From the NCBI GenBank assembly GCA_020348445.1, contig CP070751.1, positions 4,137,872 through 4,192,178 of the forward strand: 54,307 nt of DNA. Direction: 5' to 3'. The notes beneath the pieces are model-generated. The model was not told the DNA's origin. It did not search any database and saw only the letters and a list, made by a program, of their open reading frames with translations. Positions 29,401-34,633 of this stretch are shown here, in pieces. The stretch is from Thermoplasmata archaeon. GTDB taxonomy: Archaea > Thermoplasmatota > Thermoplasmata > GCA-020350865. Position 1 is the first letter of the stretch. Each line of letters starts with the position of its first letter. The position numbers and the translations under genes were made by a program.

Positions 29401-30555
29401 TTGGTCTTATCCATGCGGTTTGAGGCCCAAATATCGGAGAATCAGAGAAATCAGTTGGTGCATAGTATGGCTGTAAAGGACAAGGGTAAGAAAAGAATGC
29501 AGGGTGTGATGCTACTTTCGGTTTTATCGTTCGCTTTGGGTTTTATATTGATCGGGGCTGGGATATTTTCTGTTGTCACAAATTCTGACTCTATAATGAG
29601 CAACATAAACCTTGTTGCTCAACAGGATGTGACTGCAGCTGCCGCAGCATCCATGATCATTTCAATAATATTTTTCTTTATAGGTCTTGGACTTTGGTTT
29701 ACCAGGGGATGGGCAAAATCGATACTGCTTATATTTGCCGGGCTGGGTCTTATTTATTTCATTTTACGGGGACTATTTATTGCCTCCTCAGTTGCCAGTT
29801 CCCGGGACGGTATCACCTCCTCGGAGACCATAGGTTCCGGCATCACGGCAATCTGTCTTGTGGCATCGATATTTATTCTGTGGTACTTTACGCGGCAAAG
29901 CGTGATCATATTGTTTGAGGCAAAGGAGATGAAGCTCACAAAAAGGAAGATCAGAGCAATAGAGGAAAAAATAGAGCTGGGAAGGCAGAGATGCAATGCA
30001 GGGGAAATTTCAAAGGCTGAGCTGTCGAAATTGAGATCAGACTGTATTGCCGAAGAAAGGCTTCTTCGAGCCAAGATCAGGCATTTCGAGAAACTGCGCC
30101 TTTCCAGGGAAAGGAAAATCAAGGAAAAAGTGGAAGGAAGAAAAAAGGCAAAGGAGGAAAAACAGGCTAAGAAGGAGAAAAAGCTGGCAGAGAAGGAGAA
30201 GAAGGCTGAAGAGAAAGTAGGGTTTGAATGCCCGGATTGCGGTGCCGACGTTAAAGAAGATGAAACCGTCTGTCCAAAATGCGGAGCAGAGTTCGAAGAG
30301 GAGGAAGAGGAAAAGCCCAAAAAGAAGAAGGCCAAAGGCGAAGAGAAGGAAGAGAAGGAAGAGGAAAAACCCAAAAAAAAGAAGCCTAAAGGTGAGGAGG
30401 AGGAAGAAGAAAGGGAAAAGAAATCCAAGAAGAAATCCAAAAAGAGGAAGGCCAAAGATGAGGAGGAGGAAGAAGAAACGGAAAAGAAATCCAAGAAGAA
30501 ATCCAAAAAGAGGAAGACCAAAGACGAGGAAGTGGAAGAAGAGGCAGAAGAGTGA
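29401..30555 (+). CDS. Four-TM membrane protein with coiled-coil, Zn ribbon and Lys/Glu-rich repeat tail
   Basis: Four hydrophobic helices; FECPDCGADVKEDETVCPKCGAEF; likely start ATG 29467 after GGTG. Confidence 0.7.
   Translation: MVLSMRFEAQISENQRNQLVHSMAVKDKGKKRMQGVMLLSVLSFALGFILIGAGIFSVVTNSDSIMSNINLVAQQDVTAAAAASMIISIIFFFIGLGLWFTRGWAKSILLIFAGLGLIYFILRGLFIASSVASSRDGITSSETIGSGITAICLVASIFILWYFTRQSVIILFEAKEMKLTKRKIRAIEEKIELGRQRCNAGEISKAELSKLRSDCIAEERLLRAKIRHFEKLRLSRERKIKEKVEGRKKAKEEKQAKKEKKLAEKEKKAEEKVGFECPDCGADVKEDETVCPKCGAEFEEEEEEKPKKKKAKGEEKEEKEEEKPKKKKPKGEEEEEEREKKSKKKSKKRKAKDEEEEEETEKKSKKKSKKRKTKDEEVEEEAEE
30415..30546 (+). repeat. Two near-identical 66-nt tandem units (EKKSKKKSKKRK.KDEE.EEE.)
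   Basis: gaaaagaaatccaagaagaaatccaaaaagaggaag at 30415 and again at 30481. Confidence 0.9.
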
Positions 30556-30646: not shown

Positions 30647-31792
30647 ATGCCTGTCGATGACATTAGAGATACGTTGCTGACAGTGGTCTTTATAGTCGGA
30701 GTTATTGTGATTACTATTATGGTTTTTAGAATAATGCTTAAGGTTCGTCGGGGTTCAAAACCTAAAAATATGAAGGAGCCCAGGGTTTTGAAGGCTGTTT
30801 CTGCCACTCCAGATATGGACGACCTGTTCAATGCAATCACTTCCTCCAGAAGAATAGCCACGGATTTAAAGAGAAGAGGAATCGATACAAGCTCGGCTGA
30901 TGACTTGATTTCAAAGGCCAGTGAAGAATACGAGATTGGAAGGGAAGCTAAGGCAAAATTGTACATAAGTGAGGCCAAAGAGCTGCTTTTAAGATCAAAG
31001 AAAGAATGGGACGAAAAGACCGGTTTTGATGTGGTTCCCATAACTTCGACCATGGGGGAGAAACCCACTCTGAAAAAAACTCTGGATGTAGCGGATGAAG
31101 CGAGCCTAAGTACCTCAGAACCTGTCAAGCCCGATGAGGTTTTCCCAGAGCTTAAGAAAGCAGAAAAGAAAAAGCCAGATAACTACCTCCCCTCGAAATT
31201 TACGATATCCTTGGCGGGTACAGCAATCGAGAATGCCCAAAGGGAGGGTGCAAACGTGGGCGAGGCCCAAAGATACCTTATAGAGGCCAAAGCCTACTTT
31301 GATCGCGAGGATTACGACGGTGCTTTTAAATCGGCCCTATGCTCCAAGAGGGAAGCCGAAGCACTTCTTGGAATGGCTCCAACTACGGGGGAGGAGAGAA
31401 AGAGGGTGATGTCGGACTTGGCCATGGACACCGAGGAACTCAAGATATGCTCAATTTGCGGCAAGAATAGAATCCCTTACATTTGCATCGAGGTCGCGGG
31501 AGGAGAAGAGGCGACATGCAAAGAATGTTATGACAGGTCCATGGGAAAGATCGCATTGGAAGAAAAAAAGCTACCACCGCCACCACCTCCACCGCCTGAA
31601 GAAAAAGAGGAGGAAAAGGGGGAAGAGCAGAACTTCTGCCCCAACTGCGGTGCAAAGGTGAAAGAAGATGATGTTTTTTGCGGGAAATGTGGCAAACCGG
31701 TACAGGAGGAGTTAAAATGCGCGGGGTGCGGGACGAAGATTGAGCCAGGAGATGTTTTCTGCAGAAAATGCGGGGCTAGGATGGTTACTTAG
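30647..31792 (+). CDS. Single-TM-anchored helical protein with Cys-rich finger, Pro-rich linker and double Zn ribbon
   Basis: N-terminal TM; two similar helical repeats (A..LI..A...Y); CSIC..C..CKEC; CPNC..CGKC..CAGC..CRKC. Confidence 0.75.
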   Translation: MPVDDIRDTLLTVVFIVGVIVITIMVFRIMLKVRRGSKPKNMKEPRVLKAVSATPDMDDLFNAITSSRRIATDLKRRGIDTSSADDLISKASEEYEIGREAKAKLYISEAKELLLRSKKEWDEKTGFDVVPITSTMGEKPTLKKTLDVADEASLSTSEPVKPDEVFPELKKAEKKKPDNYLPSKFTISLAGTAIENAQREGANVGEAQRYLIEAKAYFDREDYDGAFKSALCSKREAEALLGMAPTTGEERKRVMSDLAMDTEELKICSICGKNRIPYICIEVAGGEEATCKECYDRSMGKIALEEKKLPPPPPPPPEEKEEEKGEEQNFCPNCGAKVKEDDVFCGKCGKPVQEELKCAGCGTKIEPGDVFCRKCGARMVT

Positions 31793-31807: not shown

Positions 31808-32851
31808 CTACTTTTTCTTCAAAGTCATTCTTCTTTTAGGCCTTGTATAGACCTTCTTTGGCATGCCCGAGGTTTCATCGAATTTAGTGTTTATACGCCC
31901 CAAATGGATTTCCTGTTCCTTTATCTCGGGAGAAAGATGCTTTTCAAATTCTGAGTAATTCATGTCATTCCAGGTGAGGTAGACTATGTAGTCCGCGATC
32001 TCGTTTTTCATGGACTCTGCTGCTTGCTCCAAATCGATTTTGCCCTTTGGAACGTATATGGTGGGAGTCAGGTTCATTATGGCCTTTATGGTCAATTCGC
32101 CGCCATTTGGAGTTATCCTGAAGAAATTTCCCTTTCCCTCCGAAGAATCCCCAGTACTCTTTTCAAAGGGCAGTATGCGCAGCACATTGCCCAAAGGACC
32201 CTGCTGGATATTAACATCATCATCCAAAAGTTCCCTATCCAAATCCGAAATAAGCTTCTCCTCGATTTCTCTTATCATTTTTGCTAAATTAGGTTTTTTG
32301 TCAAAGCTTTGTTCATATTTCAGATGGACCTTGGAGTTTATCTGGCGCATATGGTCCTTGAAGTTGATTGAGTTCACAAGGTTCTCCTTGATCTTCTTGG
32401 GCTTCTTTCGTTGCATCATATAGCACTGTATGTTCTCTACATCTGTCACAATTGAAACGTAGTTCTTCATCTTGCTGGACCTGCTTTTCAGCATGGCGTC
32501 ATCAGTGCCTGAGTGAAAGAGCTCAGAAACACCATAGAGCTTACGAAACTCACCTGTTTCGAAATCCATCTTAAATGGATGCGAATGGTACAATCCAACA
32601 ATGCCCACATTCCTTGGGAACATAACGGCAAGTTTCGCCTCCTCGGCAGGATCAGATTCTGCGCTGTATCGGGACTGCCTCTTGTAATTTGTGCAGGGCA
32701 CTGCATCGCAGATGTAGACAGTATCCTCAGTAAAAAATCCAGTGAGCCAACCCAAAACCTCAAAACCATGCTCTCTGGCACCCTCCAGAGCATGCTCGGA
32801 TATAACCCGTTTTAGGTCGCGTTTCATCACCAGGTTTTTTTGCTCAGCCAT
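31808..32851 (-). CDS. JAB/MPN+ (JAMM) metallopeptidase with ODR4-like C-terminal region; candidate modifier maturase/deconjugase
   Basis: EV.GWL.G, GLYHSHP, S-x2-D (HSGTDD); last gene of the UFM-like operon. Confidence 0.8.
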   Translation of the reverse strand: MAEQKNLVMKRDLKRVISEHALEGAREHGFEVLGWLTGFFTEDTVYICDAVPCTNYKRQSRYSAESDPAEEAKLAVMFPRNVGIVGLYHSHPFKMDFETGEFRKLYGVSELFHSGTDDAMLKSRSSKMKNYVSIVTDVENIQCYMMQRKKPKKIKENLVNSINFKDHMRQINSKVHLKYEQSFDKKPNLAKMIREIEEKLISDLDRELLDDDVNIQQGPLGNVLRILPFEKSTGDSSEGKGNFFRITPNGGELTIKAIMNLTPTIYVPKGKIDLEQAAESMKNEIADYIVYLTWNDMNYSEFEKHLSPEIKEQEIHLGRINTKFDETSGMPKKVYTRPKRRMTLKKK

Positions 32852-32868
32852 GATTTATTCACTCCGCT

Positions 32869-33750
32869 TTACTTGGTCATCTCGTCGAACATCTTGGCAG
32901 CTTCCTCGATTTTTCTGAGTTTTTCATCATCCAATTTATCCTTTGCCTCACCGCAGACAGGACATTTGGGGTCCCTCTCCCAATCGTACCTCTCTATCAC
33001 ACCCCTTATGCCGTTGTACATCAGATAATTGGCAACATCCCCGAATTCGAGTAGATACTTGAAGCCTTCCTGACACTGTAGGGCCGCGATTATGGTCATC
33101 GTGGTGGGAAGGGAGGTCAGGTGGCATATTCCAGTTTGTCTGTCCTTTCCAGGCTCCTCTAGTTCGAGGTAGAGCATCGGATCCTCTTTAACAGAAACTG
33201 TTTTTTCGGACTTTTCCTTTCCCAGACCCAAGGTGTGCCTGTGGCATCTGTAGCATGCTGTTTTTCCTGGTATCACCACCTGAACAGATCCTCTTATTCC
33301 GTCTAGGCTTGCTCCACCGTCTATGAACGTCCTCTTTTGCTCGACACATTTGGCGTTCATAAAAAGGCGAACACCGAAAGTGTCCACGCAGCCAAATATC
33401 ACATCCGATTTTCCCACCTCATCCATGAACGCTTTATACCCGTCCCCGGAGGTGATATTAAAGGGATGTGCAACGATATCGATTTGCTCATTGATCTCCA
33501 AGAGGTATTCCGAGAGTGCCTCCACCTTGAACTTGCCGATCTGATTGGGTTTGTATATCATCCTGTTCATGTTGGCCATCTCGAGAGTGTCATAGTCCAT
33601 GATAACCAATCTTCCAATGCCCACCCTTACTAAAATCTCGGCCACGGTGGCGCCCAGACCTCCCACTCCCACCACTAAGGCGCTCTTTTCGCGCAACTTC
33701 GAGAAATCGGCGAATTCAAATAGAGTCAGTCGCTGATATCTTTCGTCCAT
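32869..33750 (-). CDS. uba5: UBA5-like E1 activating enzyme (ThiF/MoeB/E1 superfamily)
   Basis: VGVGGLG, DYD..E.ANMNR, NIT....FMD, CVD, PG.TACYRC, GICHLTSLPTTM, KYLLEFG.V.NYL.YN, CPVC; start ATG 33750 (or TTG 33759). Confidence 0.85.
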   Translation of the reverse strand: MDERYQRLTLFEFADFSKLREKSALVVGVGGLGATVAEILVRVGIGRLVIMDYDTLEMANMNRMIYKPNQIGKFKVEALSEYLLEINEQIDIVAHPFNITSGDGYKAFMDEVGKSDVIFGCVDTFGVRLFMNAKCVEQKRTFIDGGASLDGIRGSVQVVIPGKTACYRCHRHTLGLGKEKSEKTVSVKEDPMLYLELEEPGKDRQTGICHLTSLPTTMTIIAALQCQEGFKYLLEFGDVANYLMYNGIRGVIERYDWERDPKCPVCGEAKDKLDDEKLRKIEEAAKMFDEMTK

Positions 33751-34229
33751 TGTAACCAACCTTTTTCTTTAAGATGGAAAATAACGCTCTGAAGCCAGTA
33801 GGACACCTCCCTTTTCAGATAAAGTGCGAGACTGCAGTGCTCGTTCCACCAGTAATTCTGCTCCATGTGCATGTCGCAGATGCGAAGGCCGAGGATAGGG
33901 TCATCAAGCTTTCTATCAGTGTAGCGCATGAGCTCCGGTATCCTTGCGGCAGGGGGAGTGTGCGGGTACGAATCAGTGAACACCAGTTCTATTAGGTAGT
34001 TTCTGCCCTCGGCTGTCAGGGTGCCCTCCCATCTTGTGGCATCATCGCCGATGGGTCTGATAGAGAACCACCTTTCCTCCTCCTGGTTCTTCTCCATGTA
34101 ATCAACGTACTGCATGTACTTCAAAAGAGCGTACTTCTCCTCTTTGACCCTAAGTGGCCACATCTCATTCCCGGGAGAAGCCACGGTTGAACATTGTAAG
34201 AAATAGAATAAATCAGGTTCTTGTTTCAC
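33726..34229 (-). CDS. ufc1: UFC1-like E2 conjugating enzyme
   Basis: W..R.KEE..AL..Y, WF, TRW.G, YP.T.P, PEL..T, RIC (catalytic Cys 33876-33878), W...C.LA, WL....L..KG.LQ. Confidence 0.82.
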   Translation of the reverse strand: MKQEPDLFYFLQCSTVASPGNEMWPLRVKEEKYALLKYMQYVDYMEKNQEEERWFSIRPIGDDATRWEGTLTAEGRNYLIELVFTDSYPHTPPAARIPELMRYTDRKLDDPILGLRICDMHMEQNYWWNEHCSLALYLKREVSYWLQSVIFHLKEKGWLQWTKDISD

Positions 34230-34324
34230 GACATCACTTTTTTTATTTGACTAATTCAATATGACGATTACAAGAGCAATTAAATGTATGAAAGTCCTCT
34301 ACTAATTCTTTGTTTTCGATGGAA

Positions 34325-34585
34325 CTAGGTGCCCACAACAGATGGGTCTATGACATGGATATTCGTGCCCTGCTCGATGACTTTTTCAACGGTCCCGCCG
34401 GTAATCGGCGTTCCTGCAGGATATGTGGCACTGAGAATGCTGGGATCCTTGCCCTGTTTTTTTGCAGCCAAAACCAGTGCCTCCTGAAACAGCATCTCCT
34501 TTGGAACCTGGACCGTTACAACGGGCTTCTCCGGCTCTGAAATGAACGTGAAACGAAGTGCAACCTTATTGTCCATTCTAACCAT
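34325..34585 (-). CDS. ufm1: UFM1-like beta-grasp modifier with C-terminal VG-T
   Basis: KV..T..SEP..P...VP....F...L..AA...G..I..T...V...G....I....VG-T; colinear with UFM1 and gap-free over the first ~56 positions; GGAGTGA RBS. Confidence 0.8.
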   Translation of the reverse strand: MVRMDNKVALRFTFISEPEKPVVTVQVPKEMLFQEALVLAAKKQGKDPSILSATYPAGTPITGGTVEKVIEQGTNIHVIDPSVVGT

Positions 34586-34623
34586 AATCTCACTCCCTGA
34601 TTGTTAGAATGATTGCGTTGAGG

Positions 34624-34633
34624 TTATATATTT
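34624..34633 (-). promoter_or_regulatory. Candidate archaeal TATA box for the UFM-like operon
   Basis: AAATATATAA on the minus strand about 40 nt upstream of ATG 34585; only strong TATA-like run in that interval. Confidence 0.4.

Follow-up and report, generated by a model that had tools for sequence, protein, structure and literature searches.

Two surveys have set the known range of the modifier UFM1 and its partner UFC1. In the first, both were found only in eukaryotes (PMC10183829), and in a later one, Ufm1 homologues among prokaryotes were recovered only in Asgard archaea (Nat Microbiol 2026; PMC12962969). In another archaeal operon of this kind, the metalloprotease CsRpn11 was shown by experiment to cut its cognate ubiquitin precursor precisely behind the last Gly and to act on conjugates as well, and it is specific for the ubiquitin-like protein (Ubl) of its own operon (PMC6043591). 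In our literature search, no paper was found that links UFM1 or UFC1 with Thermoplasmata, or that describes such an operon outside Asgard archaea. Here we describe a small gene in a stretch of 54,307 nucleotides (nt) from a Thermoplasmata archaeon (assembly GCA_020348445.1, contig CP070751.1, positions 4,137,872 to 4,192,178), hereafter the window. The evidence makes it probable that this open reading frame (ORF) encodes the precursor of a divergent modifier of the UFM1 family, hereafter the tag, that it is the first of an operon in the order tag, conjugating enzyme (E2), activating enzyme (E1) and JAMM metalloprotease (JAB), and that the precursor is matured by that JAMM protease.

The tag gene lies on the minus strand at 34325..34585, stop included, and is the first gene of the four-gene operon. 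It starts with an ATG at 34585-34583, ends with a TAG at 34327-34325 and encodes a pro-form of 86 amino acids (aa). An earlier reading of the DNA from its letters alone (the sequence-only reading) had described a UFM1-like modifier ending in VG plus one extra Thr, and this ending is present, the last codons being GTT GTG GGC ACC TAG, or V-V-G-T-stop. Gly85 (GGC, 34333-34331) is the predicted mature C-terminus and Thr86 (ACC, 34330-34328) a predicted one-residue pro-peptide, with the scissile bond between these two codons, which together occupy 34328..34333 of the minus strand. Because homologues are many (45 in a collection of 5.8 billion proteins and 29 in the species genomes of GTDB), and because their proteins share 58-97% identity and their DNA has synonymous codon changes, the ORF is a real gene and not a chance frame. 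Ahead of it, in 34590..34633 (minus), are a Shine-Dalgarno-like stretch, GGGAGTGA, at 34597-34590, 5 nt from the ATG, and a TATA-like stretch, AAATATATAA, at 34633-34624, about 38 nt upstream of the ATG. Judged by motif and spacing, these are likely the expression signals of the tag. Behind the gene, a 95-nt spacer with an A-rich run (34230-34324, minus) separates it from the E2 gene and may contain an internal promoter.

Although divergent, the tag is related specifically to UFM1; taken alone, the sequence signal is weak but one-sided. In a Pfam scan the sole family reported was Ufm1 (PF03671), over residues 7-43 only, with 12.4 bits (E 0.16) against a gathering cut-off of 27 bits. The hidden Markov model search suggested in the sequence-only reading named Ufm1, yet below its cut-off. 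Among 37 tag homologues, 10 matched Ufm1 (best E 0.0069), which was also the sole family matched by more than one member; none of the 37 matched the ubiquitin, ThiS, Urm1 or Rad60-SLD (SUMO-type) families, and for ThiS (PF02597) this held at E values up to 1. A sequence search of the PDB with the tag gave 12 matches and one with the profile of its family gave seven, and every one of them was UFM1 (best E 0.049 and E about 1, respectively). For a profile-to-profile alignment, 25 eukaryotic UFM1s were gathered, and hhalign aligned them with the tag family with a probability of 80% (E 1.4e-5) over 86 columns at 26% identity. This alignment starts at the first strand, ends at the terminal VG and places tag Gly85 opposite human UFM1 Gly83. 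It agrees with the earlier count of about 20 identities to the human protein, as do Foldseek and VIA (18-25% identity over 72-84 residues). The first 56 or so residues had also been described as free of gaps, which is not so, since HMMER and hhalign both put a one-residue gap near residue 44.

The predicted fold pointed in the same direction. With the AlphaFold2 model of the tag (predicted local distance difference test, pLDDT, 87.9), the ten best Foldseek matches in the PDB were all UFM1, with TM scores of 0.73-0.89 and 20-24% identity. Nine of the ten had a root-mean-square deviation (rmsd) of 1.2-1.5 Å over 74-76 columns, and the tenth one of 4.0 Å over 83. SUMO and ubiquitin ranked after UFM1, with rmsd values of 2.2-3.8 Å, and the best fold matches were UFM1 by about 3 Z units as well as by rmsd. 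A search of the ESM Atlas with the tag returned just unnamed or generic Ubl clusters. When 1.8 billion representative proteins were searched with the family profile, four giant LVIVD/PKD repeat proteins were matched, which we rejected as compositional false matches; beyond these, the search yielded only the clade of the tag itself.

The genes next to the tag belong to the same pathway type. The E2 gene (33726..34229, minus) encodes a protein of 167 aa that matches Pfam UFC1 (PF08694) with 39.7 bits (cut-off 25), and the top 26 matches in a PDB sequence search were all UFC1. Its predicted catalytic residue, Cys118, is invariant in 30 orthologues. The E1 (32869..33759, minus; 296 aa) is a minimal enzyme of the UBA5 type, with UBA5 as its best PDB match at 163 bits and MoeB as the next family at 82 bits. 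Its GICHLTSLPTTM motif aligns with the Cys250 motif of UBA5, which makes Cys212 the putative catalytic residue; this cysteine and those of the zinc site (Cys169/172/266/269) are kept in 28-29 of the 29 orthologues. The long C-terminal tail that bears the UFM1- and UFC1-binding motifs of UBA5 is missing from it. Gene neighbourhood thus pairs the tag with a putative UBA5-type E1 and a putative UFC1-type E2. Because sequence, profile, fold and partner enzymes agree, the tag is best regarded as UFM1-type rather than as another Ubl, and the earlier description of a beta-grasp Ubl closest to UFM1 holds.

The operon itself is conserved. All 26 loci that extend to the position of the JAB, out of 29 species loci in all, have the genes in the order tag, E2, E1, JAB. 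In locus L010, from the genus of the window and with the tail SC, the JAB seemed to be missing, but the sequence past E1 residue 244 is masked with N and so says nothing on its absence. The operon was found in at least three different gene neighbourhoods, and in one lineage it adjoins core genes such as those for RNA polymerase and L7Ae. Its carriers are all Thermoplasmata or Methanomassiliicoccales-type metagenome-assembled genomes. A class-wide sample of 301 genomes in 88 genera contained the tag in 29 genomes and 10 genera, always as a single copy. Among the positive families, five had it in each member sampled and three more in most or some of theirs. Another 400 genomes of the phylum gave no UFC1 match, a sample that excluded the positive families and so shows only that the system is uncommon.

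While Gly85 is invariant in the 37 homologues and Val84 is conserved in at least 90% of them, what follows varies both in length (0-9 residues) and in sequence (T, FR, L, Q, R, SR, SC, FQ, QP and others). Most of the GTDB species orthologues (22 of 29) stop exactly at VG. In the genus of the window the tails are T, SR, SC, FR or FQ, that is, 1-2 residues; metagenomic relatives have L, Q, R, C or CW, and a few other lineages have longer, unrelated tails. The 25 eukaryotic UFM1s have an invariant RVG followed by SC, SS, YTR, NN or nothing. Since most orthologues end at VG and near relatives carry differing tails of 1-2 residues, Thr86 is a dispensable and unconstrained pro-peptide. In the tail-less orthologues that were aligned in DNA the E2 start is 4-10 nt past the tag stop, and in the clade of the window's genus a spacer of 28-115 nt precedes the E2; in this genus, tail and spacer apparently arose together. 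What an E1 adenylates is the free carboxylate of a terminal Gly, and for this reason Thr86 would have to come off before activation. Longer, fused forms of the tag did not turn up when looked for, which is weak evidence. One metagenomic protein of 109 aa (P0051) has tag residues 1-28 joined directly to the E2 N-terminus, and is probably a deletion or assembly artefact and not a natural fusion.

The last gene of the operon (31808..32851, minus) encodes a two-domain JAMM/MPN+ metalloprotease of 347 aa, predicted to serve as both maturase and deconjugase. Its JAMM motif residues, Glu31, His89, His91, Ser114 and Asp117, are invariant among orthologues, and among solved structures the complex of CsRpn11 with ubiquitin is the closest. 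When the JAB was modelled together with the tag and zinc, the complex scored 0.86, and the best control 0.33; on calibration, 58 of 80 solved complexes attained a mark of this kind, against 2 of 110 mismatched pairs. Three runs agreed in at least 90% of contacts, and the pLDDT of the partner was 86 or more. Modelled in this way, tag residues 79-86 contact JAB residues 31, 89, 91, 114 and 116-117, and helices 191-205 and 280-295 of the extra C-terminal domain hold the body of the tag, which supports binding of the tag by the JAB with the tail in the JAMM site. No cysteine protease of the UfSP type (Peptidase_C78) was found above the cut-off in the genome of the window, which is 81.7% complete by marker count (best match 11.5 bits, E 0.42). 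The C-terminal half of the JAB (residues ~175-347; 31808-32329, minus) belongs to no Pfam family. With the JAB taken over its whole length, a Foldseek match was obtained to the C. elegans UfSP (5xda_D; 365 columns, TMq 0.42, rmsd 10.3 Å), a weak lead toward the MPN-like N-domain of UfSP/ODR4 proteins.

Taken together, we propose that the JAMM protease would cleave the Gly85-Thr86 bond and expose the carboxylate of Gly85, and that the UBA5-type E1 would adenylate this Gly and then carry it as a thioester on Cys212. The UFC1-type E2 would next receive the tag on Cys118 and hand it on to lysines of putative target proteins, from which the same JAMM protease would take it off again. The analysis itself shows the fold of the tag and its likeness to UFM1, which enzymes are its neighbours, that Gly85 and the catalytic residues are invariant, and that the tail varies, whereas the chemical steps, the cleavage by the JAMM of the operon and the conjugation to proteins are inferred.

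Several points weigh against a UFM1-family precursor that is matured by the JAMM of its own operon. The E3 ligase UFL1 (PF09743) had no match in the window's genome at its 81.7% completeness, DDRGK1 and CDK5RAP3 not having been searched. The score of the complex model may in part reflect the model's memory of solved JAMM-Ubl complexes. Tail-less orthologues retain a JAB with intact catalytic residues, so that processing can be a secondary role at best; because these species keep the protease, it is probably conserved mainly for deconjugation, and maturation would be a by-product. Other trimmers are also at hand, since the genome holds four further JAB-type ORFs and a carboxypeptidase could equally strip one residue, a one-residue tail being an easy substrate for such an enzyme. 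There is, then, a modest chance, to be kept in mind, that Thr86 is removed by another JAB-type protease or by a general carboxypeptidase and that the JAB of the operon only deconjugates. Against it stand the modelled docking of residues 79-86, Thr86 included, in the JAMM site, well above the best control, and the example of CsRpn11, the nearest solved relative, which performs maturation as well as deconjugation and acts specifically on the Ubl of its operon (PMC6043591). The sequence-only reading had held that the Thr must be clipped, probably by the JAB; the dispensable tail, the intact JAMM motif and the docked tail speak for this, and the cleavage itself is what we infer from them.

The remaining points of this kind concern the kinship with UFM1. 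The Pfam Ufm1 score is under the cut-off for every member of the family, the family profile did not reach eukaryotic UFM1 among the 1.8 billion representatives, the C-terminal 42 residues of the tag alone gave only chance matches in the PDB and no UFM1, and a fold search against representatives only did not rank UFM1 first. A generic prokaryotic beta-grasp modifier, SAMP/ThiS-like or ubiquitin-like, with a likeness to UFM1 that is convergent or too weak to count, could produce such results. We consider this unlikely, given that none of the 37 members matches the ubiquitin, ThiS, Urm1 or Rad60-SLD families and all PDB sequence matches are UFM1, that UFM1 is the best fold match and hhalign aligns the two end to end, that the tag ends in VG and not in GG, and that both partner enzymes are independently of the UFM1-pathway type. 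As for ubiquitin as found in Caldiarchaeum, the tag system has neither the ubiquitin profile (PF00240) nor the GG end, the ubiquitin-type E1 and E2 or the RING E3.

ThiF-type E1s, together with beta-grasp proteins that end in Gly, act in sulfur transfer in all domains of life, and SAMPs and Urm1 have both tag and sulfur-carrier roles. The tag might likewise be mainly a sulfur carrier, with an E1-made thiocarboxylate on Gly85, as in MoaD, ThiS and Urm1. This is improbable, however, as the operon encodes a dedicated E2, whose Cys is invariant, and a JAMM of the isopeptidase type, includes no rhodanese domain, MoaE or ThiG, and is accompanied by separate ThiS/MoaD-type proteins and other E1s elsewhere in the genome. 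Least probable of all is an antiviral defence by Ubl conjugation of the Bil/Bub/CBASS-Cap2-Cap3 kind, in which E1, E2, JAB and Ubl also occur together, because PADLOC (2023 release) gave generic E1 matches of at most 71 bits (versus 163 for UBA5), marginal E2 and JAB matches (E 0.0087 and 0.0038) and none for the tag, and because the operon is single copy, present in all sampled members of five positive families and in most or some of three more, vertically kept next to the RNA polymerase and L7Ae core genes in one lineage, and free of flanking mobile-element genes in the window.

Concerning chain formation, the sequence-only reading had noted that Lys69 of human UFM1 does not appear conserved, and this is correct, as hhalign places Glu71 of the tag opposite it. 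Family members differ in column 71, where E or D predominates, and frequently have K or R right after it. The mono-modification that had been deduced from this loss was rejected, because the absence of Lys69 says nothing on the remaining lysines, of which the tag has seven, with Lys46 invariant across the family.

Converging on the operon from the other side is a gene for a zinc-ribbon protein (30647..31792, plus; Pfam DZR and Zn_Ribbon_1). The part conserved next to the operon is its C-terminal stretch of about 115 aa, with three zinc ribbons, which the protein in the window extends by a membrane anchor, a long helical region and a poly-Pro linker. By tblastn, a homologue was located directly past the JAB in 18 of the 29 loci, on the opposite strand and a few bases from the JAB stop; homologues lie, for example, at L020:7448-7762, L029:7465-7776 and L004:8480-8830. 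The protein may be a fifth component of the system, as a candidate reader, substrate or E3-like factor. Its gene adjoins another (29401-30555, plus) for a membrane protein that has a single zinc ribbon and ends in a long, Lys/Glu-rich tail of low complexity.

The genome to which the window belongs is a single contig of 5.16 Mb, unusually large beside the 1.2-3.7 Mb of the sampled genomes of the same class. Two further clusters outside the window (G000:C1:2150587-2155395 and G000:C1:2564692-2567061) each combine a ThiF-type E1 with a large JAB protein (413 and 434 aa) no more than about 2 kb away, and five ThiS/MoaD-type ORFs are located away from the tag operon. Because of these extra E1/JAB clusters and ThiS/MoaD-type ORFs, several Ubl-type systems would coexist in the genome, which raises the question of their cross-specificity.

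A conserved UFM1/UFC1/UBA5 operon in Thermoplasmatota, outside the Asgard archaea, contradicts both published ranges and reopens the origin of UFMylation. We suggest, tentatively and as a reading that may well prove wrong, that the UFM1-UFC1-UBA5 core arose in archaea and is both older and more widespread than the Asgard-eukaryote lineage. According to the same reading, it would have been a self-contained operon at first, with the JAMM as maturase and eraser and no UFL1-type E3, in which eukaryotes later swapped in UfSP; the tails after the Gly would be the result of recurrent neutral drift of the stop codon, tolerated by the resident protease; and the part of the missing specificity factor, or of the main target, would fall to the convergent zinc-ribbon protein. 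The system is also small enough to be tested, with four soluble proteins, none of which is an E3; its E1 is minimal, and its protease is a metalloenzyme rather than a UfSP. Rebuilding it in vitro could reveal what the core chemistry needs. In addition, the tails of sister species (none, T, SR, SC, FR, FQ) amount to a natural experiment on whether the pro-peptides of Ubls are functional or tolerated.

Compared with the eukaryotic UFM1, UBA5 and UFC1 (PDB 5IA7, 5HKH, 6H77, 8BZR), the tag has the same beta-grasp, with the lowest rmsd of all matches, is 22-26% identical to UFM1 over its full length, and shares with it the single terminal Gly after Val, followed by a short variable tail. Also common to both are an E1 of the homodimer type, with its Cys in the crossover loop, and a UFC1-type E2. 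The archaeal system differs in that the tag stays below the Pfam Ufm1 cut-off and has Glu71 in place of Lys69, the E1 is without the long C-terminal binding tail of UBA5, a JAMM metalloenzyme stands instead of the UfSP cysteine protease, UFL1 was not found in the genome of the window, and the genes are together in one operon. The Ufm1 homologues of Asgard archaea are prokaryotic as well, and their kinship with UFM1 was judged mainly by predicted structure (PMC12962969); the tag family is confined to Thermoplasmata lineages.

In the operon of Caldiarchaeum subterraneum (PDB 6FNN; PMC6043591), the tag is of the ubiquitin type, with a GG end and a 9-residue tail, and is accompanied by a ubiquitin-type E1 and E2 and a RING E3. 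Unlike CsRpn11, the JAB described here has an extra C-terminal domain of about 190 aa, which contacts the tag in the model. With the archaeal SAMP/UbaA/JAMM1 system, finally, the operon has in common a beta-grasp tag, a ThiF-type E1 and removal by a JAMM enzyme. SAMPs, however, are of the ThiS/MoaD type, end in GG, need no E2 and also carry sulfur, whereas the tag of the Thermoplasmata operon combines a UFM1-type fold with a VG end and a dedicated E2.
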